A DNA stretch of 64,000 nucleotides from a virus, in IMG/VR virus record IMGVR_UViG_3300025039_000014, positions 32,001 through 96,000 of that record, one strand, 5' to 3'. Shown here piece by piece: positions 355-20,933 of the stretch (positions are counted from its first letter, which is position 1; the number at the start of each line of letters is the position of its first letter). Below the pieces are notes generated by a model. That model ran no database searches. It was given only the letters and a program-made list of their open reading frames with translations, and was not told where the DNA came from. The translations under genes were made by a program, and so were the position numbers.

Positions 355-615
355 ATGAACTATAACGTCCACGACGCCAAGTCGCAGCTATCCAAGTTGA
401 TCGAGCAGGCACTGGCTGGCGAGGAAGTGATCATTGCCCGTCGCGGCAAGCCGGCAGTGAAGCTCGTGGCCTGCGAGCCGAAGGGTATCGATTCGATCTG
501 GGGCGCGCTAAAGGGGGCAGCGCTGGAACCCGGATGGGACGCCCCGATGACCGAGGAAGAGCTGGCCGATTGGTATGAGGGTCAGGATGAGACGCTGCCG
601 GAGAACGCACGATGA
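355..615 (+). CDS. Phd/YefM family antitoxin
   Basis: NVHDAKSQLSKLIEQALAGEEVIIARRGKPAVKLV signature; overlaps the toxin start. Confidence 0.9.
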   Translation: MNYNVHDAKSQLSKLIEQALAGEEVIIARRGKPAVKLVACEPKGIDSIWGALKGAALEPGWDAPMTEEELADWYEGQDETLPENAR

Positions 616-1019
616 ACCTGCTGCTCGATACCAACATCATCATCGGCATCTTGGAAGGCGATTCACGATTGATCCCACCGGCGGCCAGGGAGATTCTGTC
701 AAATGCAACTCTCCACTACAGCGTAGCGGTGATCTGGGAGGTCTCGATCAAGCATTCGACCGGCAAGTTGGCCATCTCGCCGATGCAGATGTTCGACATG
801 GTCAAGCGGGTCGGCATGATCGAAAAGCCAATCGCCACCTCTCACACTCTGATCGTCTCCACACTGAATCCGATCCACCGTGACCCGTTCGATCGCATTC
901 AGATCGCTCAGGCGATCGGCGAACGACTGACCCTGGTCACAGCCGATAATCTGCTGCCCCGCTACGACAGCACCGGAAACGTCGTCAGGCACATTTCTTC
1001 TGTAGCCAGTAAGTCATAG
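612..1019 (+). CDS. vapC: VapC/PIN domain toxin
   Basis: LLLDTNII...WEVSIK...HRDPFDRIQIAQA...LVTAD PIN motifs. Confidence 0.9.
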   Translation: MNLLLDTNIIIGILEGDSRLIPPAAREILSNATLHYSVAVIWEVSIKHSTGKLAISPMQMFDMVKRVGMIEKPIATSHTLIVSTLNPIHRDPFDRIQIAQAIGERLTLVTADNLLPRYDSTGNVVRHISSVASKS

Positions 1020-8549: not shown

Positions 8550-9401
8550 ATGAAGAACCAGAAAGCCCAACAGGACGAACTGGACCAGGTGCTGAGCGGG
8601 ATGGACGCGCTGGATGACCTGGACGCGCTGGATTTCGAAGTCGAGGAAGTCACCGCCTCCGCCAACGATGAGCAGCAGGAAGTGGCTCATGCCGAGGACA
8701 TCGTGCTGGAAGATGACGATGTTGCCGCCGAGCTCGAAGTGGAAGTCGAAGCCGCCGCTCAAGAGTCCGACGACGAGCCGGAAATCGACGACACGATCGA
8801 GGCTGAGATCAAGGCAGCGGAGCGCGAGCGCAAGCTGAAAGAAGCGACCATGAGCGAGGACGAGGTCGAAGCCGCCCAGGCCAAGTCTGCCAAGACCGGC
8901 AAGGCCGGCAAGAAGTCGCGTGCTCCAGTAACCGCTGCCCCCCGCGAGCCGAGCGAAGCCATCGATGTCGCTGCGCTGATCGCGTCCAAAGTGCAGCCGA
9001 CGATGAGTCACTGGAAGATGATACCGGGCATGGACGAGGAAACGGCCGAACTCTTCAAGGCGGAACTCGAGGCACAGTTCGAGGCACTGCCCAAGAAGAC
9101 TCGCGAGAAAGCCGTGAACCTGATGGATTGGTTCGTCCGCGGCCGCTCGCTCTCCGTCTTCGTCGGTATCGCCTTCGACGTGCTATCCAGCCAGGGCGAG
9201 ATCACGCCGGCGGACCTGCGCAATCGCTATCAGTCGAATCCGGGCAAGTCGTATACCCAGGGCACGGCCAATGCGCAGACCGGCCAGGTGATGCAGATTC
9301 TGCGCACCTTCCAGATCATCGACAGCGACGGCAAGATCAACGAAAAGCACGCCATGATCAGCGCGTTCAAGGAGCGCGAGGTGGAAGACAAGGTCGCATG
9401 A
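8550..9401 (+). CDS. hypothetical protein with highly acidic N-terminus and possible C-terminal winged helix
   Basis: D/E-rich first ~90 aa; ITPADLRNRY...GTANAQTGQVMQILRTFQII. Confidence 0.75.
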   Translation: MKNQKAQQDELDQVLSGMDALDDLDALDFEVEEVTASANDEQQEVAHAEDIVLEDDDVAAELEVEVEAAAQESDDEPEIDDTIEAEIKAAERERKLKEATMSEDEVEAAQAKSAKTGKAGKKSRAPVTAAPREPSEAIDVAALIASKVQPTMSHWKMIPGMDEETAELFKAELEAQFEALPKKTREKAVNLMDWFVRGRSLSVFVGIAFDVLSSQGEITPADLRNRYQSNPGKSYTQGTANAQTGQVMQILRTFQIIDSDGKINEKHAMISAFKEREVEDKVA

Positions 9402-10556: not shown

Positions 10557-11003
10557 ATGTCCGAACAGACGACCAATATCGTGCAGGGCCAGTTCATCGA
10601 GCTTTCACCCGAAGAGCGAGTTCGATTCATGGCTCACCTGACACTCGGCTTTGGTATCCAGCCCCAGATGTCGTTCCAGATGCTCGGCACGGTCATGCTG
10701 CTGCGTAACGCCCGCCGGATGCCGGATCACGATGAGAGCCAGATGATCCAGATGATGGTTGATCAGGCAAACAACGAGCTGAGCGTCCCGGCGGAGAATC
10801 TGCGAGCGGTCATCGAGCGCACACTGGCACATGCCGAGAGCGTTGTCGTTGCCTATGAGTCAGCGGTGATCGACGCACGCCAATCCGACACCCCGGTGGA
10901 TTGGACGCAAGTGGACGATCTGATGAGTGAGCGTGGGGAAGTCATCGGCAGCGACTTCGTGACCCAGTCAGCGAACGATGAGCAAGCCGAGTTCAAGGCT
11001 TGA
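10557..11003 (+). CDS. hypothetical protein
   Basis: 148 aa, coupled to the upstream gene. Confidence 0.65.
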   Translation: MSEQTTNIVQGQFIELSPEERVRFMAHLTLGFGIQPQMSFQMLGTVMLLRNARRMPDHDESQMIQMMVDQANNELSVPAENLRAVIERTLAHAESVVVAYESAVIDARQSDTPVDWTQVDDLMSERGEVIGSDFVTQSANDEQAEFKA

Positions 11004-11101
11004 CCCCCGAGCGCTCGCTTCTAGCCCTGACGCGACGTGATATGATTGTCTTGTTGCAGAGATGCGATCTACCTTTTTGTGAGAGAGAAGGTTAGTTCTT
11101 G

Positions 11102-11129
11102 AAGCCGCCCCACTAGGGCGGTTTTTTTT
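11102..11129 (+). terminator. Rho-independent terminator
   Basis: CCGCCC...GGGCGG followed by T8. Confidence 0.8.
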
Positions 11130-11824
11130 GTCTGCTGTCACAGTCGTCACGCCGATGATCACGCTTGTGACTCGTAGAATCACCTCAAGGTTAAAATTTT
11201 CTTGGCCATTTTGGTCCGTTTCAAAACCTCTGTTGCGAAACATTCTTATCTTGAAAAGACCATATCGCTCTTTCCTACCGCATATCAGTGACTTAACCAA
11301 AACCCGTCACAACATGAGAAACATTCTCAATAGAGGTTTCGTGAAGGAACCTGGCGGGACCAGGTCACTCGCGCCTCCCACCCCGAAACCCATGTGACGT
11401 CTGTGACGTTTGAGGTCAAAACATAAGGATCGAGGTGACAACACGAATCACGACCCGGTCACGCGATAAACCCTACGGATCAAGCGGTTCCGCGCACACC
11501 CCGCCCTAGCGTCACGACTCCTACCCCGGCATCACGACAACGTCACGCGAATCAGATATCGGGATTCGCTCCACAAAGCGCTCTAAAGCGTTCCCGAGCA
11601 TGAAGCGCTACGTCGACTCAAGTTGATCAGGGAACGCGCTCAAAACGAAGCGCTGACGTCTTCCCGAGCATGATGGATCGCTCGAATCGCTCGAATCGCT
11701 CGACAGCACGAAATCGACAGGGATCGACTCCAGAGACACAGATCACGGACCCCGATCCGAGTGAGACGGTCTCTCGAGCACCAGGCTAGCCGCGCCCGAC
11801 ACCATGATCAGCCAGATCCCATGC

Positions 11825-11911
11825 GGCAGACCTATATCTCTGTTGTCTGTGTTTTCAGAGAGTGATGGATTTATAGATGGAGACAGGCACCCGAGCTAAA
11901 AACAAAACCTC
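11825..11911 (+). repeat. dispersed ~85-bp element, copy A (copies at 57950-58034 on + and 28109-28157 on -)
   Basis: Shares GGCAGACCTATA...ATTTATAGATGGA..CAGGCACCCGAGCTAAAAACAAAACCTC with copy B. Confidence 0.85.
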
Positions 11912-13604
11912 ACTCGGGAGAGACGAAATCCCTGGAAACCTGGAATGGGAAACACCTCGGAACCGGGGTTTCTCCCAACTCACAAAGCCTGATCACCAGG
12001 AGTCCGGGGCTGCGCCGCGTCTAGGCTTCCCGGATCACCATGAAAAAGGGTCTCGCTCTGACCAGGCTCAGGCAACGGGTCTTTCCCAACCAGGCTCCCG
12101 AACACCACGGAATCAGGAAACCAAGTGCCAGGACTCAGCCAGCCGGATTCCGGGAACACCAAGAAAATGGGTGAAATGTTTCCAGGGCTCAGGCTCGGGG
12201 GAAAGAGAAACCAGAGTGAGGAAACCGAATCGACCAGGAGAAAGACAATCCGGGAGAGAAAGCGAACCTGAACCTCAAGGGAACAGAGAGAGCCTGATGA
12301 GCATGGGAGAGAATGAATCCAAGGAGATCATGAGTGTGGGAGTGATAGAGCTGTGGAAAAGGCAGAGAGACGGGAGAGGACGGATAGACGGGAAGAGGTA
12401 TGGAAACGGGGAAAGCGGAGAGAATAGAGGTAGAGAAAAACGGGAGAGAGATGGTGACGGGGAAACGGGGACATAAGGGGCCGGGGCATTGCCGCCTCTG
12501 CCAATCACTCGCCTGGCCGCCTAACCTTGGTCACAGCCTCCACAGCCATCCCGAGCGCCCATCTCCCTTTCTCTCCCAGGCATCGCCGATTCGCACCATA
12601 CTCGGGAAAGGGAAGCTATCCACATAGACACCGACACCAAGGGAGAATCGGGAAAGGCGAGCGATGCACCTATAGAGCGACGCCAAGGGATTGAGCCCGT
12701 GGTCGATCGCAAAGTGAAGGCACCGGGAGAGACCTTGCTAATGCCGGTCATGGGGATTTTTCGCCTCCCGAATCGGTGACGCTCGCGAGGGTCATGGTGC
12801 TCGAGGAACGACCTCGGTGGACACGCCGCGACACCACTCGGCGAGGCGAATGTAACCGTCGGTTACCTTGTCTGAATAGCCGCTGAAAACAGGGTTATTT
12901 CACGGCTTAAAATTGGTGAGTGCAAATAGGCCAGAGGGCAGTGCGTTTTTTCGAGACGGATTTACAGACATAACACCGCGCCGGACCAGAGCTCATTTTT
13001 TCGAGCAGCATCGCAAGTATAAGACCGCAGGTGCGACCTGGCCGTCAAGGGCTTCCTCGGAGCCCAGCATCCACGGGGGTTCGTTCCTCTACCTCACCTG
13101 ACGACTCGATTCGCTTCCCCATTAAAAATCGGAGTTATTATAATAAGAAAAAAACTATCGTTCTTCAGCGTAGAAATTAGTTTCACTCGGTTACAGCTTT
13201 AAATTGCAGGGTTTTGCCCCTGCTGTGCTCGCCCTTTAAATTCTTTACTTAAATATTAATCCAAACTTTAAAATAATATCGCGGTTACACATTCTGAGGT
13301 GCTTCTCTGCAAGCTCATCCTTCCCCTCACCCCGCGTGGCTGGGCGCTTGTAGCCACAAATGCACACGCAAGAGGTGGTAGTAGATCGGATGACAACACA
13401 TGGCAATACATGATCAGGAACCCGAGAGTCGGTCATCGCTCAAAAATGAGCGATATGAAAAAAAGTGGCTCCGAAAGCAAATAAGGGCTTGCCTGCATCG
13501 CAAGGGCAATATAAGTTTTAAATCGTCGACGTTACGCGTTGGCAATGAAACCCACACGCAACAACACACGCCCACTACACGGCGTGACGAGAGAGGTATG
13601 CCTG

Positions 13605-14096
13605 ATGGAAACGCAGAGACTGGAAGCGGTAACGAGAATGACAGAGGGAGAGATCGAGATCGTCAAGTGCGGCGATGAAACGATTGTCTGCCACTACGAT
13701 GCGCCGTCCGTGACGCTCTATGGTGATGTGCAGCACCTGGCGGTGTTCAACGTGACGCTGACCGATCCGGATCGCTTCCCTGACCACCTGCTCTACCGTA
13801 GCTATGTGGTGACGCTGTGGCAGGAACCTGGAAATGATCCGTTCTACCAGACGTCTATCAAAGCCGTGGTGTGTCCGGTGAAGAGTCAGCGAAGGATCGA
13901 GGCGCCGAAGATGTGGTGGTCTATGCCCCTCATGTCGAAGATGAATTTGCTGCCCGATAACTCGACGGCCGAGCTGAGCGAAGACATGCTGGAAGCCATT
14001 GCGAATCGAGCGGCGAAGGAAATGGTATTGGGAGCTTGTGCGCCTGTGCATCCGGTAACGACTGCATGGTCTTCGGCGCATTCTTCGCTGGTATGA
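13605..14096 (+). CDS. hypothetical protein
   Basis: GAGAGGT RBS before ATG at 13605. Confidence 0.55.
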   Translation: METQRLEAVTRMTEGEIEIVKCGDETIVCHYDAPSVTLYGDVQHLAVFNVTLTDPDRFPDHLLYRSYVVTLWQEPGNDPFYQTSIKAVVCPVKSQRRIEAPKMWWSMPLMSKMNLLPDNSTAELSEDMLEAIANRAAKEMVLGACAPVHPVTTAWSSAHSSLV

Positions 14097-14224
14097 AACG
14101 AACCCTCTCCAGTGCGACCTAGTTTGCAGACCGGAGAGCACACGGGAAAGGGTTTGAGCAGGACTATACCGCTAAGGGAGGGTCAGGGGGAAACCCTGAC
14201 TCTCTCGTAGTCTAGGAGAACACC

Positions 14225-14455
14225 ATGGCAAAGAAATCACTGAATGGCTGGATGCGGCTGTGGATCGGTATCTCGAGCTTGTGGATCGGCCTATGGGTCG
14301 CCTTGGGCATTACCGTCAGCATGACAGCCACAAACCCAAATTTTGACTACACCGACATGACACCCACGCTTCTGGTAACCCTCGCTCCACCCGCCGTTCT
14401 CTTCGGCCTCGGTCATTTCGTGGCCTGGATTCGCCGCGGCTTCTCTCACGACTGA
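14225..14455 (+). CDS. small two-TM membrane protein
   Basis: AGGAG RBS; GWMRLWI plus two hydrophobic helices. Confidence 0.7.
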   Translation: MAKKSLNGWMRLWIGISSLWIGLWVALGITVSMTATNPNFDYTDMTPTLLVTLAPPAVLFGLGHFVAWIRRGFSHD

Positions 14456-14652
14456 GATTCCGCCCACTCTTTTGCCGACAGCCAGGCGTCTTGCGGACGG
14501 GACTCTTCGGCGATCTGCTGAGCGTTCGGTAACACCACGGCGTAGAGCGTGCGGCCGTATCTCGAGGTCTTGATGCACTTGGTGCCGGCAGGCAACAGCG
14601 CCATGGCTTGGTCTTTGTGCGAGGGGGTCGGTTTCTTGTCGAAGGTAATCAT
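14446..14652 (-). CDS. hypothetical protein
   Basis: AGGA RBS on minus strand; 68 aa. Confidence 0.55.
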   Translation of the reverse strand: MITFDKKPTPSHKDQAMALLPAGTKCIKTSRYGRTLYAVVLPNAQQIAEESRPQDAWLSAKEWAESQS

Positions 14653-14668
14653 GGCTATTTCCTAACGC

Positions 14669-15049
14669 TCATCTACAAGATAGCTCTGGGCGACTTTGAA
14701 CGAACAACATGAAGGCGCTTGGGGCATTGGTAACCGGGCTGATCTGCTCCGATGTCTGGAGATACTCCCAGAACTGATCAAAGATTCCCTCTATATTGGC
14801 GGTAGAACTCATACAGACGGGTAAATCTAGACCTGCGTTGACGTTGTAGAACGAAAAGGCCTTTTGCATATCCAGCATGCCGCGCACATAGGCTTGGTAG
14901 ACAATGGGGGACTGAGCATGGAATTGGATTAACCTCCCCACCGTCTGTCCATTCAAATTTTGAGAATCCGCTGACGCGTCATCTGCCTGAGAAACCGGAG
15001 CCATGCATAAGGCTAAGCTGACCAGAACCAATCTTGCAAAAATTCTCAT
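14669..15049 (-). CDS. secreted protein, Rap1a/Tai immunity-like
   Basis: Signal peptide MRIFARLVLVSLALCMAPVSQA; YVRGMLD...C...YL...C pattern. Confidence 0.55.
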   Translation of the reverse strand: MRIFARLVLVSLALCMAPVSQADDASADSQNLNGQTVGRLIQFHAQSPIVYQAYVRGMLDMQKAFSFYNVNAGLDLPVCMSSTANIEGIFDQFWEYLQTSEQISPVTNAPSAFMLFVQSRPELSCR

Positions 15050-15107
15050 CGAAAATCTCTCCGTGGTTATCATACAAATATCGGCCATCATGACGGTCTC
15101 ATTAAGC

Positions 15108-15148
15108 AAAAAAATGGCCCTGGCGTCGTAGGGGAGACGGCCAGGGCC
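15108..15148 (-). terminator. minus-strand terminator-like hairpin
   Basis: GGCCCTGG...CCAGGGCC stem with an A tract on its left. Confidence 0.6.
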
Positions 15149-15250
15149 ACAACCGAGAGGGTGGGACTCTCGGGTGTTACGCAGGGAACAAGACGAACGA
15201 GTGGTGAACTCAAATCCGCCTTGAGAACCGATACTCGCCGAGAGCTAACC

Positions 15251-15270
15251 ATAAGTCAATGGTTACTTAC
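15251..15270. promoter_or_regulatory. operator copy 4 (degenerate)
   Basis: ATAAGTCAATGGTTACTTAC. Confidence 0.6.
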
Positions 15271-15631
15271 CCATAAGAATAAAAAACCAGAAACGACAAC
15301 GCCCGAGGGGTAGTCACGATCTCGTCGGGAAGACCGTTCTATGCCCACGGGCGCTTTGCAGTATTGGCGTCCTGGCAGAGACGACAAACATGATGGGGAT
15401 CGGCTTATCGACGAGCACCCCGCCAGGACGCTCCCAGTATAAGCACGCTTTCGAGAGCACGCCAAGCGGCGGTGTGACGGGCTTGGACTGATTTTCCTGG
15501 TCATGAATCGTCAATCGCTTACAGACCGTGTTAGAGCGGCTCGATCGAGAATCCAGAGAGAACAGTCGATCGCCGTCGAGGCACGCGAGACACTGTCTCT
15601 CGCAGCGCATGAGTCTCTTCGGCTCAGGCTA

Positions 15632-15651
15632 GTAAGTCATTGGTTACTGAC
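15632..15651. promoter_or_regulatory. operator copy 5 (degenerate)
   Basis: GTAAGTCATTGGTTACTGAC, upstream of a TTGACA. Confidence 0.55.
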
Positions 15652-15782
15652 TAAAGTCATTGACAGACAGGCCGTTCTATAAGAACACTAGGAGTTAGAG
15701 GCAGTCAGTAAACGCTGATACCGGCCTTCCAATAACGAGTGATTTTCTCTCTCCCGCAGTCGCAACAATTCGAAGGTGATGT

Positions 15783-16139
15783 ATGGCACTCTCCGCACTG
15801 TCGTTCGTTCCCGCCCACAATCGCGACCAGATCGACATGGAATACGTCGAGACCATGGCGCAGTTCATGGGTATCGATCTCTCCCAGATACGCCAGGACA
15901 TGAAAGACCGTGCCGAACGTAACCAGGAGCTCCACGAGATCGCCTGGCGGGAACGCGAAAACCCCAATTGGGAAACGTCGAAAGCCTTTCACCGCTACGA
16001 GCAGGTCTTCTCTCATGGCTCGGCACAGGTCTTTTACAACGACTGGTTCGATCGCTATGCGGTCTATGGGCTCAAGAAAGGCACCCAGGAGCCGAAATCT
16101 TTGGAAGAGGCGATACGGCTCGTCTACGAGAACAATTAA
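15783..16139 (+). CDS. hypothetical protein
   Basis: GAAGGTG RBS; 118 aa. Confidence 0.65.
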   Translation: MALSALSFVPAHNRDQIDMEYVETMAQFMGIDLSQIRQDMKDRAERNQELHEIAWRERENPNWETSKAFHRYEQVFSHGSAQVFYNDWFDRYAVYGLKKGTQEPKSLEEAIRLVYENN

Positions 16140-16157
16140 CCCATAGAGGCGAAACTG

Positions 16158-16508
16158 ATGGCGGTTGGCATGCTGACCATAGAAGACAGCTACGTAGACC
16201 ATGAGAACGGTGAGGTCTTCCTGTTACTGGTCAGGAAGGATTATCAAGGCGAAATAATTTCGGTGGACATTGGCGTGGTGGAGAGCGATCGCGATGTTCT
16301 GCCGAGAGACCTGGACTTTCTCAAGCCCGATTTGATCTCTCGCTCCGCAAAGCATGGCAAGAACTGCGTAATGAACCAGTTCTCTGCCATCAAACGGGGC
16401 ATCCCCTCGCATGAAGCCCTCAAACTCCACGCTCCAAAGAAAATCAGACCATCATGGGCTCCCAATCTGTCGGATGCTTTGTGGCTACCGAAAAAGCCGG
16501 ATAGCTGA
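16158..16508 (+). CDS. hypothetical protein
   Basis: GAGG RBS; 116 aa. Confidence 0.55.
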   Translation: MAVGMLTIEDSYVDHENGEVFLLLVRKDYQGEIISVDIGVVESDRDVLPRDLDFLKPDLISRSAKHGKNCVMNQFSAIKRGIPSHEALKLHAPKKIRPSWAPNLSDALWLPKKPDS

Positions 16509-17063
16509 TTTCGTGAAAGGTTAGCTATCAACACGTAGAGCGCATCGCCGAGATAATGACCATAGCCAAGGGTCTCTCCCGCTCAGGCTAAGGGTCTCTC
16601 TTCGCCAGGCTACCGAGGGGTCTTTTTCTCGCAGGCTACCAGCACTCACCAAAACGACTCACCGTGGTGGAAATCTCCCATAAAGCGCCATCTGACGGGT
16701 CGACCAGGATCTCACTGTGGTCCTCTCACCGGGGGTGACGTGTCGAACTCGCCCTGCCGCTCACTGACCTTGAGAGCGTGATTCCCGCCCTACCACTGCC
16801 AGTGTCACCCGCTCGCCTGCACACCACGGTCACAGCCACCCAGAATCGCCCCAGGAGCCATTCTCCACTCGGAACCGGGCTTGGTGCTGTCTTGCCATGG
16901 GGAAAGGGAGACGGGGCTGTCTGGGGCTCGTCTGACCGAGGGTAACGCTGACCAGCACCAGGATTGACTGCCGGGATGACGAATTGACGGTGATCGCCAC
17001 GCAACCGACTCACCATGGGGAAAGGGAAACGGGTCCGGTGAGAATCCGGGTGCCACGGTCACA

Positions 17064-17185
17064 GGGAAAGGCTGGCGATCCACTGCTCTCGGTGAGAACC
17101 AAGGTCACTGGGAACGGGAAAGGCTGGCGATCCAACCGGGAACGGGAAAGGCTGGCTTTGCATTTTTGGGAAAGGCTGGCGATCC
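17064..17185 (+). repeat. four direct repeats GGGAAAGGCTGGC(GATCC)
   Basis: Copies at 17064, 17116, 17144, 17168. Confidence 0.9.
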
Positions 17186-17490
17186 ATAGACCGTGGTGGA
17201 TAGCCGTGGTGCGGGGTGCTGCCAGCCGCGATTTTTGGCGGCGGCGACGTTGCCACGACGGGTTTTTGCCGCTGGTTACTTTGCCACCCAACGATTTTGT
17301 GGCTAACGACTTGGTGATGTTTTCGCCAGCCTGCTAATGATTAGCCACCCAATCGTTTCTTTGCTGGTCAATCCTCCGGTTCGTTCGCGTCATATCCATT
17401 AGCAGCATACGCGTTAATTCTAAGCGTGATTTGCTCGGGGAAATCAATCTTTTTTTGGTCAAATTCCCTCATAGCGGGAATTTATAGGGT

Positions 17491-17545
17491 GTTTACGCGT
17501 CATAGTTTTATTTGTGTTTACGCGTTAACAGTAAATCGATAATCT
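17491..17545 (+). promoter_or_regulatory. putative sigma70 promoter TTTACG-17-TAATCT with two GTTTACGCGT boxes
   Basis: GTTTACGCGT at 17491 and 17516; AT-rich upstream element. Confidence 0.55.
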
Positions 17546-17605
17546 GGATACGTGCTCAAGACGAAGCACACAAAAAAAAGTCTCTCTCTCATTAAGGAAA
17601 TCATC

Positions 17606-18238
17606 ATGAAAATCACAGCTAACGATCGCACTATTGCTACTAACTCCAACGAAAAGAAAGTTTCGTTGTCTGAAAAATTCAATCTTGTCAAGACGCACGT
17701 TTCTTCTCTTGCTATCACGTCTAAGCAAACGAAGATTAAGGAGACGCAAAGCGCAATTATCGACGCATCCAAAAAGCGCGTCGAGAACTACGAAGCGAAA
17801 GCGCAGCGCAACGAAACAGACTATCGCGAATTAACAGTCGAAGTGACTCACGCAAAATATAACGCGTCGTTGCTCGACTTGGACGCAAAAGCGATGAAAT
17901 ACACTATCGACAAGAACATCAATCTCGCATCCGCTGTTAATGAGTCGCGCGAATATAAGAAACGTCTCAAGTCGTTTTTGGAAGCGTGCGCGAACAACGA
18001 CGCATCCAAACTCGACAAAGCGCTAGCGAAGCTACAAGCGCACATGAAAGCGTCCAGCGCATCCGCTATCACTGTCGCGCAAGTCGCGACAATCATGGAA
18101 CACAGCACGACGACGCAAGCGAGCTACTTTAAGAAATTCGCGACAATCCTCGGAGTTGTATCGTCCGAACGCTCTAATCAGTCTCCTATGACAATCAATA
18201 AAGAAAGCGATGTTTATAAAGACTTCGTTTCACTCTAA
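17606..18238 (+). CDS. island protein 1: basic, helical 210-aa protein with possible C-terminal winged helix
   Basis: TAAGGA RBS; one Gly, one Pro, no Trp; followed by a hairpin. Confidence 0.8.
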   Translation: MKITANDRTIATNSNEKKVSLSEKFNLVKTHVSSLAITSKQTKIKETQSAIIDASKKRVENYEAKAQRNETDYRELTVEVTHAKYNASLLDLDAKAMKYTIDKNINLASAVNESREYKKRLKSFLEACANNDASKLDKALAKLQAHMKASSASAITVAQVATIMEHSTTTQASYFKKFATILGVVSSERSNQSPMTINKESDVYKDFVSL

Positions 18239-18251
18239 TTGATCGACACAT

Positions 18252-18278
18252 AAGCGCACTCCTTAGAGTGCGCTTTCT
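18252..18278 (+). terminator. terminator-like hairpin after island gene 1
   Basis: AAGCGCACTC...GAGTGCGCTT followed by a short T tract. Confidence 0.65.
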
Positions 18279-18303
18279 CACTGGATTCCGAGGACAATTC
18301 GAC

Positions 18304-18609
18304 ATGATTAAATTCATTATCCGCAATAACACAAAGCGCTTTTACAATGCGCACGCTGTCGCGCAAGTCGACGCGCAGATGATAAACACTCGCATCGTCT
18401 ACTTCGTTCGCGCTGGATATATCATCGACACGAAAGCGCATCCATCATGCGCAGACTTTGAGCGTCAGCACGTCGCAACATATGCGACACGACAGGATGC
18501 GGAACACGCAGCGTATGACGCAATTGACGGAATCGCTAACGAAGTCGACTTCGACGTGATCGAAGCGTATTTTTATCGCTATCATGTCCAGCAATTCAAA
18601 GCAGCGTAG
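18304..18609 (+). CDS. island protein 2, hypothetical 101 aa
   Basis: GAGGA RBS before ATG; both Gly encoded by GGA. Confidence 0.7.
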   Translation: MIKFIIRNNTKRFYNAHAVAQVDAQMINTRIVYFVRAGYIIDTKAHPSCADFERQHVATYATRQDAEHAAYDAIDGIANEVDFDVIEAYFYRYHVQQFKAA

Positions 18610-18827
18610 CGCGTCCAGCAGCGCGCAGAGAGCGCGTTAACGTCAATCCGCTGTCATGATATGGATTCGATGTTAGCGCGTCTCTGAGGACGAAATAGAG
18701 CGATTGAGGATTAGCTAATGAAAGCGAGGACGATGGAGACATTAGGACGACATGAATTAGCAAAGTCTTAGAAATTCCCGACTTAGTGGCTGGGCATAGC
18801 CGCCTCAATTTCCCATTCCCGGCACTC

Positions 18828-18990
18828 CCCTTATACCACCAGGCCCCAGCCCCAGAGCCCCGCCCTTATACCACCGGCTACGAGTTCCCCGCGTCCCAAG
18901 CGTCCCCGCATCCCGAGTCCGACCGCCTGCCGTGAATCACCGAGCCCCATCGCCACCCCTGACCGACGTGAACCCGTGCCTTATACGACC
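18828..18990 (+). repeat. CCTTATAC(C/G)ACC repeats in a C-rich tract
   Basis: Copies at 18828, 18863, 18979. Confidence 0.75.
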
Positions 18991-19063
18991 GCGACCACCC
19001 GGCGTTGCCGGCAGTCTCAGCCCGCTCACAAGCCCTGGGCGTTGCCAGGGCTCCAAGTCGACC

Positions 19064-19610: not shown

Positions 19611-20933
<1,323 letters not shown>

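Follow-up and report, generated by a model that had tools for sequence, protein, structure and literature searches.

The DNA analysed here (the window) is a 64,000-nt stretch of the virus record IMGVR_UViG_3300025039_000014, and it belongs to a 105-kb prophage of Halomonas-type bacteria. The element had been taken for a phage-plasmid when only its sequence was read, but no evidence for this status was seen; it is regarded as an integrated prophage because a relative lies inside a 4.2-Mb chromosome. The window carries a cassette of two genes, g1 and g2, with non-coding parts before, between and after them (Table 1). Three 105-kb relatives carry the cassette natively and in synteny. Among 342 Halomonadaceae genomes, g1 was found in the H. 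sulfidaeris prophage only, and blastn searches of the island against phage and plasmid collections gave no matches.

Table 1. Features of the cassette, its borders and its flanks (positions in the window).
Feature	Position	Strand	Basis or remarks
G-rich flank with GGGAAAGGCTGGCGATCCA (four copies), CCATGGGGAAAGGGA (two copies) and CGTGGTGG-type words	16887..17211		G-rich on the + strand
Left border hairpin, AAATTCCC-N6-GGGAATTT	17462..17483		Last motifs (GGG, GGGT) here
Motif-free island	17489..18776		Word counts, null models
Two operator-like half-palindromes, TTTACGCGTCAT and TTTACGCGTTAA	17492..17528	+	Sequence comparison with relatives
Gene 1 (g1), 210 aa	17606..18238	+	ORF; structure prediction
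Intergenic hairpin, GCGCACTC-CTTA-GAGTGCGC, then TTTCTC	18254..18279	+	Between g1 and g2
Gene 2 (g2), 101 aa	18304..18609	+	ORF
Conserved non-coding 3' tail	18610..18776	+	Stem with some compensatory changes; run of GGA words
Right border landmark, CTGGGCATAGCCGCC	18790..18804		Conserved in relatives; motifs restart
C-rich flank, three CCCTTATAC(C/G)ACC repeats	18820..18991		CCCTTATAC invariant in relatives

Structure of the cassette and its borders

The half-palindromes TTTACGCGTCAT and TTTACGCGTTAA match the GTGACGCGTCAC palindrome of the relatives, which lies there directly 5' of a TAnnnT −10-like hexamer. As judged from this match, the stretch probably serves as promoter and operator region; no consensus match to a sigma-70 promoter was found upstream of g1. 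The product of g1 contains one glycine, one proline and no tryptophan. It is predicted to fold into an N-terminal three-helix bundle and a C-terminal winged-helix-like domain; the winged-helix assignment comes from the structure model, and the MarR-like matches are weak. Fold searches (Foldseek, VIA wide) returned generic helical bundles and weak MarR-like winged-helix rows, but nothing more specific. No known family was found for g1, and neither BLASTP nor hhalign detected similarity to the product of 8550-9401.

The intergenic hairpin is kept with sequence changes in the relatives, and in lineage L002 it has a terminator-like score. The gene downstream of it, g2, is fast-evolving: its product shares 18-24% identity with the positional homologues of distant lineages, and only seven cluster representatives exist among 1.8 billion proteins. 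In an alignment of six sequences, eight positions are invariant and few of these are polar. The g2 model (pLDDT 68) gave no Foldseek match. Searches of Pfam, PHROG, NCBIfam and PADLOC gave no match for the island proteins, and the Atlas fold search returned unnamed clusters only. The 3' tail contains an invariant AAATAGAGCGAT at 18693-18704, and it is without motif on either strand in every lineage examined.

At the left border, the relatives carry an A/T-armed palindrome with a GC core in the same place. The right C-rich flank has 53 [ACG]CC per 300 bp, and the G-rich strand is directed towards the island on both flanks. In addition, no tRNA genes or Rfam families were found within the window, and there is no sign of a replication origin, the cumulative GC skew passing the island without a switch.

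Absence of GG[CGT] from both strands

Hereafter, GGB stands for GG[CGT] and VCC for its complement, [ACG]CC. By direct count, both words occur zero times in the island, and thus neither strand has GG[CGT]. The counts given in the sequence-only reading are exact: from 17491 to 18776, all 19 GG are GGA and all 16 CC are TCC. The edges are as sharp as described there, with a GGGT ending at 17489 and TCCC, then GGCTGGGC, from 18776. Motifs are absent between 17488 and 18777, a gap of 1289 bp, and the borders of the ban are the same on both strands of the window to within about 20 bp. The runner-up gap is 112 bp long, in the window and in the full 104,759-bp virus record alike. Outside the island one motif occurs per 9.3 bp, so that about 139 sites would be expected within it. 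The island makes up 1.2% of the genome, and about 11,000 motifs lie in the remainder of the phage. GGA/TCC, in turn, has its usual frequency in the island (0.98 times that of the rest of the window). The GC content is 46% in the island versus 58%; CG and GC are nevertheless abundant, as had been noticed, at 1.92 and 1.54 times what the base composition of the island predicts.

The absence was compared with several null models. With the amino acids of the two coding sequences fixed and the codon usage of the phage, 75.9±6.4 motifs are expected, and the minimum in 20,000 draws is 50. When the genes' own codons are permuted among synonymous sites, 21.8±3.2 motifs are expected, and none of the 20,000 permutations reaches the observed zero; therefore, the codon junctions have been tuned too. 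For the three non-coding parts, which contain no motif, about 25 are expected from their own base composition. The depletion, at first a matter of simple counts, thus beats every null model, codon-shuffled ones included.

The effects on the proteins that had been read from the sequence were also confirmed. Glycine amounts to 1.0% versus 7.0%, proline to 0.6% versus 3.9%, and tryptophan to 0 versus 1.1%. The codons GCC, ACC, GGC, GGT and GGG are never used in the island, and the serine codon TCC is in normal use. A cause at the level of codons or tRNAs was rejected, because the ban is also obeyed by out-of-frame junctions and by non-coding DNA. A deamination footprint was rejected as well: the trinucleotide ratios show no excess of C-to-T products, with GCT, GTC, ACT and ATC near 1x and CGC and ACG up.

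Conservation of the ban and its strand gradient

In the relatives, the cassette sits between the same two landmark sequences, and the ban is co-extensive with it. Protein identity is about 50% and synonymous sites are saturated. Among five further lineages and the window, g1 identity is 49-64%, and the same codon is used at only 34-48% of the conserved g1 residues. The ban has been maintained independently across these lineages. The closest relatives, P0002-P0004 (79-86% identity), lie outside this DNA-level comparison.

Sense-strand GG[CGT] is nearly absent in five of six lineages, where GGA stands at 1.0 times expectation. For g1, observed versus expected sense-strand GGB is 3 vs 14 in L002, 1 vs 16 in L004, 1 vs 16 in L005 and 0 vs 5 in L007. 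The sense-strand ban is present in every lineage with any ban. On the antisense strand, the window and L005 show a complete ban and L004/L007 a strong one; in two lineages it is weak or partial (weak in L002). The island of G001, a 106-kb genome, has a ban on the sense strand only (GGB 3 vs 14 expected on the sense strand, 29 vs 39 on the antisense strand); the three longest GGB-free runs of this genome are contiguous and all lie inside the cassette. The island of G002 has a partial ban. Such a strand gradient is more easily explained if RNA or the non-template DNA strand is read than if duplex DNA is. The 55-95 bp upstream of the −10, as its position is predicted from sequence, are also motif-free in L002, L003 and L005.

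One lineage (L006/L008), known from short contigs only, is without the ban, its 17 GGB and 49 VCC being at chance level. It has an unrelated gene in the position of g2 and lacks the conserved tail. The ban is thus linked to the cassette and the g2 family, the DNA-level basis of this link being the single contrast with L006/L008. At the protein level, the sequences of 22 g1 homologues force no word in 11 cases, a single word in two and both words in nine, and in eight of these nine by Met-Gly plus Lys/Glu-Pro dipeptides. Where tryptophan occurs in g2 (L002 and L004), the next codon starts with A, giving TGGA.

A ban conserved at one locus, saturated synonymous sites, neutral GGA, and a sense strand stricter than the antisense strand all indicate that selection still acts against a word which is read chiefly on one of the strands; the ban is due neither to foreign composition nor to mutation bias. 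The general proposal of the sequence-only reading, that GG[C/G/T] is the target of some activity which the unit has to evade, is therefore supported by the null models and by the recurrence of the ban at the same locus at saturated synonymous sites.

Candidate readers of the word

The explanation that we tentatively prefer is that the cassette is kept GG[C/G/T]-free to escape a reader of the word in single strands, most likely a GG[C/G/U]-specific endoribonuclease, with g2 as counter-factor. The island would then be one autonomous, self-regulated transcription unit, consisting of operator palindromes, the winged-helix-like g1, an attenuating hairpin, g2 and a structured tail. The RNase might serve in defence or as a toxin, and its gene might belong to the host or to a co-resident element. 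This RNase would cut motif-bearing RNAs, while the message of the cassette would survive and be translated, and g2 might then counter the RNase. For this reading speaks that the sense word is absent over the whole predicted transcript, with no GGB in 1.29 kb. Against a pure RNA reader, however, the antisense ban of the window and L005 is as strict as the sense ban, motifs are also missing from the predicted promoter DNA, and both strands of the window share their borders. The antisense and promoter-DNA bans, seen in several lineages, might be caused by the same agent, or a second one, touching DNA strands opened by transcription. Since the motifs elsewhere in the phage must still be expressed, the reader would have to be transient or neutralised. 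No nuclease with GG[C/G/U] specificity was found here, nor is one known to us. The role of g2 as counter-factor is a guess, made for a protein whose few invariant polar residues and model without fold match have been described above.

In a second explanation, which we consider unlikely, the reader acts on single-stranded DNA: a nickase or an enzyme that modifies bases, such as a glycosylase or an ADP-ribosyltransferase specific for ssDNA, would recognise GG[C/G/T] or its complement in strands opened by transcription. In a strongly transcribed cassette, the non-template strand, being the more exposed one, would lose the word before the other strand does, and a purge of GGB from the non-template strand is at the same time a purge of [ACG]CC from the template strand. 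This would account for a sense strand stricter than the antisense strand, for the like borders on both strands of the window and for the inclusion of the predicted promoter DNA; in addition, nicks could be sealed by the DNA ligase that the phage encodes. However, the remaining phage genome would be damaged too, and no ssDNA-reading enzyme with a GG[C/G/T] word is known to us. DarT is present in 48 of the 342 Halomonadaceae genomes, and the three best loci are macrodomain-linked, i.e. of the thymine-specific DarTG2 type. Motif-specific modifiers of ssDNA do exist: DarT2 has the word TNTC, and DarT1 targets guanine, but without a clear consensus (PMC11543638). DarT as the specific reader was dropped, because the best loci are of the thymine-specific type and E. 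coli DarT1 shows no well-defined motif around guanine (PMC11543638).

The reader might also be encoded by the phage itself, so that the message of the cassette survives the phage's own shut-off; it would be either g2, paired with g1 in the manner of a toxin-antitoxin system, or a PIN-domain RNase. This seems quite unlikely to us. The predicted layout does resemble a type II toxin-antitoxin module: palindromic operators are followed by a gene whose product appears to be DNA-binding, by a hairpin that would attenuate transcription, and by a small gene (about 100 aa). The ban is found together with the g2 family and is gone where g2 is replaced, and a gene for a PIN-domain protein lies 17 kb upstream of the cassette (window 612-1016). 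Some VapC RNases read GG-containing words, favouring UA*GG (PMC6118392). On the other hand, the eight invariant, mostly non-polar positions of g2 and its lack of an RNase-like fold match argue against g2 as the reader, G001 maintains its sense-strand ban without a homologue of the PIN gene, and every other phage message would be cut as well.

A purely biophysical cause is improbable. It would require that a unit under very strong transcription keeps clear of G-runs and GG steps, which favour R-loops, G-quadruplexes or polymerase pausing, the inward G-rich arrays of the flanks acting as insulators against read-through. The flanks are indeed G-rich, and on the strand that would be RNA-like if transcription entered the island. 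However, GGA is neutral and its runs even cluster in the tail, whereas GGC, GGG and GGT are absent, and we know of no structural property that separates GGA so sharply from the other three; moreover, one lineage of the same gene is without the ban.

The mechanism proposed in the sequence-only reading was more specific: a modifier of the phage itself, the ParB-ParB-ATPase operon about 5 kb away, would place a bulky mark on GG[C/G/T] of virion DNA and hamper host RNA polymerase, so that the unmarked cassette is read first. The operon lies beside the terminase genes (ParB_N 23772, P-loop ATPase 25116, TerL 29104) and is carried by all three related phages with some ban, and a mark on the [ACG]CC strand would make avoidance on the template strand essential, matching the gradient. 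Nevertheless, no modifying domain is detectable. The 301-aa ORF which had been labelled GNAT matches nothing in Pfam, NCBIfam or PADLOC, no family was found for the 159-aa ORF either, the phage ThyA is a canonical thymidylate synthase, and neither TGT/DpdA nor a C5- or N4/N6-methylase was found in the phage genome, although an enzyme of unrecognised type may be present. The operon occurs in all three complete relatives, and their bans are unequal; it is 56-82% identical in G001 and G002, where the antisense ban is weak, and its presence is therefore no predictor of a ban on both strands. The sense-only ban of G001 is also hard to square with a reader of duplex DNA. This mechanism is not supported, and we regard it as highly improbable.

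Avoidance of duplex-DNA sites has very little chance of being the cause. GG and CC are part of many restriction sites, depletion of motifs and PAMs in phages is established, and the window bans the word on both strands; but a duplex reader sees both strands alike while G001 bans one only, TCC/GGA would still present a CC/GG PAM, such as the CC of type I-F, and is nonetheless neutral (0.98-1.0x), a classical restriction site cannot be a three-letter word, and cutting in the other 103 kb would be lethal to the phage regardless. That the island has no function, being recent foreign DNA of odd composition or the footprint of a deaminase-type mutator, is scarcely credible: the loss of about 139 G/C would give roughly the observed drop in GC content, but the unit is syntenic and native in the three relatives with both reading frames intact, and its codon junctions are tuned beyond the genes' own codon usage.

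Comparison with known systems

The restriction-site avoidance and PAM depletion known from phages are genome-wide and statistical, and symmetrical for duplex readers. Here too, selection purges a short word of DNA that would be recognised by a nuclease of the host, but the ban is local, absolute and strand-graded and concerns a degenerate three-letter word. In architecture only, the cassette is reminiscent of acr-aca operons with an HTH autoregulator, i.e. a strong, small, self-repressed operon whose promoter bears palindromes and which encodes a DNA-binding regulator along with a rapidly evolving small effector; the order is reversed, however, the regulator standing first, and the regulator is large (210 aa). 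Motif bans are, to our knowledge, no described feature of acr-aca operons.

Phage CAjan carries a motif-specific DNA hypermodification, dPreQ0 at GA and GGC. A short G-containing word is likewise the key here, but neither DpdA/TGT nor another modifying enzyme was detected in this phage, and we know of no motif-free cassette in a hypermodified phage. The chlorovirus pair Nt.CviPII/M.CviPII consists of a frequent-cutting nickase and a methylase acting at CCD, a degenerate three-letter CC word that viral enzymes can read on one strand. In contrast to that pair, CCD sites such as TCCA are tolerated in the island, and neither type of enzyme was found in the phage.

Messages which evade an RNase offer a further parallel. 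Influenza mRNAs are poor in GCUG, the word of PA-X (bioRxiv 10.1101/2022.07.08.499385), and the word of MqsR is GCU/GC (PMC9636575). As in these cases, a word of three to four letters is under-represented on the message strand, which would let chosen transcripts outlive a global RNase. The differences are that the absence in the cassette is absolute over 1.3 kb, including non-coding and probably non-transcribed DNA, that it reaches the antisense strand in several lineages, and that it has reshaped the amino acid composition of the proteins.

Biological significance

In the course of a long evolution, the ban has stripped two proteins of glycine, proline and tryptophan, and it can be seen as the direct footprint of a molecular reader. 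From this footprint the specificity of the reader follows, namely GG plus anything but A, mainly on the sense strand. Meanwhile, the ban offers a ready genetic assay, in which the word is re-added synonymously, strand by strand.

It is possible, although we hold it doubtful, that many bacterial groups or mobile elements carry an undescribed single-strand nuclease or base modifier that reads a GG word, and that phages answer with motif-free cassettes whose effector, here g2, is a new anti-defence protein. If the reader is a defence nuclease, g2 would be a candidate for such a protein, and screening phage genomes by computer for motif-free cassettes might point to first-line counter-defence genes.

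The motif-free island

Within the interval counted, all 19 GG are GGA and all 16 CC are TCC, reproducing the counts of the earlier sequence-only reading. The span without GG[CGT] or its complement [ACG]CC covers 1289 bp; the next longest is 112 bp, both in the window (bases 32001-96000 of G000) and in the full 104,759-bp phage record G000, and outside the island one of the two words is met every 9.3 bp on average. GGA/TCC is found in the island at 0.98 times its frequency in the remainder of the window, and CCC, ACC, GCC and their complements are all at zero. The GC content of the island is 46% vs 58%, and the dinucleotides CG and GC are 1.9 and 1.5 times as frequent as its own base composition predicts.

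With the proteins fixed and codons drawn from phage usage, 75.9±6.4 words were expected in the coding parts (minimum 50 in 20,000 draws), and none was observed. Synonymous permutation of the genes' own codons, which preserves their odd codon usage and probes only codon junctions, gave 21.8±3.2 words, with at least one word in each of 20,000 trials. In the null-model check proposed in the sequence-only reading, the observed count is thus far below both codon expectations. In addition, about 25 words were expected in the three non-coding parts from their own base composition, and none is present. Together, the three nulls indicate that the ban acts on the nucleotide string; a codon- or tRNA-level cause is excluded, since junctions and non-coding DNA obey the ban. 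The island proteins contain 1.0% Gly (vs 7.0%), 0.6% Pro (vs 3.9%) and no Trp (vs 1.1%), and the codons GCC, ACC and GGC are absent from their genes yet preferred elsewhere, with normal use of the Ser codon TCC; the earlier remarks on missing Trp and on Ala and Thr avoiding GCC and ACC are thus borne out. The Leu codon CTG is also missing from the gene region (0/15, vs 50% of phage Leu codons), an absence not forced by the GG[CGT] ban by itself.

Anatomy of the island

From left to right, the island comprises a border hairpin, two operator-like half-palindromes, gene 1 (g1), a conserved GC-stem hairpin with a T-run, gene 2 (g2), and a conserved non-coding tail with a stem and an invariant AAATAGAGCGAT. 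In place of the half-palindromes, relatives have a clean GTGACGCGTCAC palindrome immediately ahead of a TAnnnT hexamer. Pairing of the tail stem is preserved through some double changes. The right end is marked by the conserved landmark CTGGGCATAGCCGCC, followed by CCCTTATAC repeats; these are invariant among relatives, about 35 bp apart, include the pentamer CCCTT and could be protein-binding iterons. Six GGA words lie within about 70 nt of the tail (GAGGAC, GAGGAT, GAGGAC, TGGAGAC, AGGAC), with a comparable cluster in L004; they resemble the GGA repeats of CsrA/RsmA-binding RNAs, and may simply be the sole tolerated form of GG.

The predicted structure of g1 (pLDDT 88.6) is a three-helix bundle with a winged-helix-like C-terminal domain; family and structural-neighbour searches gave no family and no informative neighbour. 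For g2, family and fold searches gave no match; among 1.8 billion proteins it is limited to seven cluster representatives. Its identities are 18-24% between distant lineages and 49% to one closer relative.

Locations of the island and other features
Feature	Location	Description
Word-free span	window 17488 to 18777
Interval of GG and CC counts	window 17491-18776
g1	window 17606..18238 (+)	210 aa
g2	window 18304..18609 (+)	about 100 aa
Gene region without CTG	window 17606-18609
Tail GGA cluster	window 18680-18750
CCCTTATAC-initial repeats	window 18820-18991; L002 11215-11270
Seryl-tRNA synthetase	window 19650-20933	complete; Seryl_tRNA_N + class II core
PIN-domain (VapC-like) gene	window 612-1016	region with overlapping ORF, 355-1019
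ORF-poor region	window 11000-17500	about 6.5 kb, almost no convincing ORFs
Purine-rich stretch	window 12300-12450	GC skew 0.69, zero [ACG]CC
GGGAAAGGC(A/T)(A/G)GCGATCCA copies	window 12602-12690 and 17064-17186	dispersed
PolIII alpha	L011 5454-8780 (G000:C1)	uracil-DNA-glycosylase superfamily domain at C-terminus, residues 958-1055
Thymidylate synthase	L012 8394-9545 (G000:C1 26394-27548)	384 aa
g1 homologue, H. sulfidaeris prophage	L031 (G002:C1 1915272-1915807)	five stop codons, frame change

The phage and its relatives

G000 is a large temperate phage encoding a PolIII-alpha/UDG fusion, a gp32-like SSB, RecA-like and SbcCD-like proteins, ribonucleotide reductase, canonical thymidylate synthase, DHFR, a Y-family polymerase, an S24 LexA-like repressor, ligase, terminase and a long tail module. 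The thymidylate synthase adjoins a 287-aa MazG-like (PRA-PH) protein and carries large insertions, as its family match comes in two to four pieces. Two relatives are syntenic, with protein identities mostly of 30 to 82%: the IMG/VR record G001 (105,962 bp) and G002, a prophage within the 4.2-Mb chromosome of Halomonas sulfidaeris. The chromosomal location of G002 indicates that the family is one of integrated prophages, and nothing was found in support of the "phage-plasmid" proposed earlier. The G002 homologue of g1 carries five stop codons and a frame change, and many other G002 genes match in pieces only; either the prophage is decaying or its assembly is rich in errors.

Directly right of the island, the seryl-tRNA synthetase gene is a lineage-specific insertion, because it is without counterpart in G001 and G002. 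The PIN-domain gene and the overlapping 86-aa ORF ahead of it suggest a phage-carried toxin-antitoxin pair; the region was found in G002, with no match in G001. DarT is encoded by 48 of 342 Halomonadaceae species genomes. At each of the three best loci (L033-L035) a macrodomain protein follows DarT, and at two of these loci DarT is preceded by a type I restriction S subunit.

Comparison across lineages

Beyond the window, DNA of five lineages was compared: L002 (G001), L003 (G002), L004/L007, L005 and L006/L008. The g1 proteins are 49-64% identical among lineages and use the same codon at only 34-48% of conserved residues. Synonymous sites have thus reached saturation, and the shared ban must be kept up separately in each lineage.

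Words in g1, observed vs expected with amino acids fixed (antisense, [ACG]CC on the plus strand)
Lineage	Sense GG[CGT]	Antisense
Window	0 vs 16.3	0 vs 33.6
L002	3 vs 14.0	29 vs 38.7
L004	1 vs 16.3	9 vs 36.0
L005	1 vs 15.9	1 vs 28.7
L007	0 vs 5.1	4 vs 13.8
L006	17 vs 18.3	49 vs 34.7

With the counts of five islands pooled, GGT, GGC and GGG stand at 0.06-0.08 of expectation and GGA at 1.00. The three longest runs of G001 free of GG[CGT] (332, 345 and 630 bp) adjoin one another within the island unit, where the longest runs of G002 on both strands also lie. In every lineage the 3' tail is word-free on both strands, and the ban limits coincide with the same conserved landmarks.

The one lineage without the ban, L006/L008, lacks the conserved tail and has in the g2 position an ORF unrelated to g2 (hhalign probability 0.2%). 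Among 22 g1 homologues known as proteins only, dipeptides whose every possible coding contains one of the words are absent from 11, force both words in nine (Met-Gly plus Lys/Glu-Pro in eight of these) and give a single forced case in two. The sole Trp of g2 in L002 and L004 precedes Thr, giving the tolerated TGGA. The single DNA-level contrast with L006/L008 and the protein-level counts suggest that the ban is associated with g2.

What may read the word

A word read chiefly on one of the strands is very probably being selected against. All lineages with any ban share a sense strand free of GG[CGT], near-completely by the g1 counts, and thus the simplest agent would be a reader of the transcript; our tentative choice is an endoribonuclease with GG[C/G/U] specificity. 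A reader of single-stranded DNA opened by transcription, instead of or added to an RNA reader, is a less likely possibility; compared with RNA alone, it would better suit three observations: the ban is complete on the antisense strand in the window and in L005, both strands share their borders, and a stretch of 55-95 bp ahead of the predicted -10 appears motif-free in three relatives.

Self-immunity, with a phage-encoded toxin as the reader, is unlikely, and a biophysical cause slightly more so. The sequence-only reading held that the island escapes something acting on GG[C/G/T], which the nulls and the lineage conservation uphold, and named as writer a GNAT/ABC/ParB operon of the phage that would mark these words. 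Such an operon does lie 5 kb off, beside terS/terL, with a ParB_N protein, a second weak ParB-like protein and a P-loop (ABC-type) ATPase, but its "GNAT", a 301-aa ORF, and the 159-aa ORF ahead of it had no match in Pfam (E up to 1), NCBIfam or PADLOC. A search of the phage for TGT/DpdA and C5- or N4/N6-methylases found none, the thymidylate synthase scores above equivalog cut-offs, and no recognisable modifying enzyme was found. The sequence-only reading asked whether the ban accompanies the operon: its ATPase is present in G001 and G002 (80-82% identical), and the bans there are unequal. Were the mark on the [ACG]CC strand, halting polymerase on the template, it would suit the strand gradient; own modification is nevertheless improbable.

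Reading of duplex DNA, as by a restriction enzyme or at a PAM, is very improbable, as G001 bans one strand only and TCC/GGA, still a CC/GG PAM, is neutral in frequency; an artefact is hardly credible. Synteny excludes a foreign origin of the island, and a deaminase-type footprint is excluded by intact frames and by expected products that are not enriched.

Outside the island, the phage must still work with about 11,000 copies of the word, so the reader can matter only in a limited time or condition, which would be one where the cassette has to stay functional. For the endoribonuclease, precedents for messages without a short RNase word are influenza PA-X, whose word GCUG is poorly represented in influenza mRNAs (bioRxiv 10.1101/2022.07.08.499385), MqsR (GCU/GC; PMC9636575) and some mycobacterial VapCs (UA*GG; PMC6118392). 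RNase damage would be fully reversible once an inhibitor is made from the resistant message, which would suit a role of the cassette as a first-line counter-defence unit; an autoregulated cassette with a fast-evolving g2 would also fit this role.
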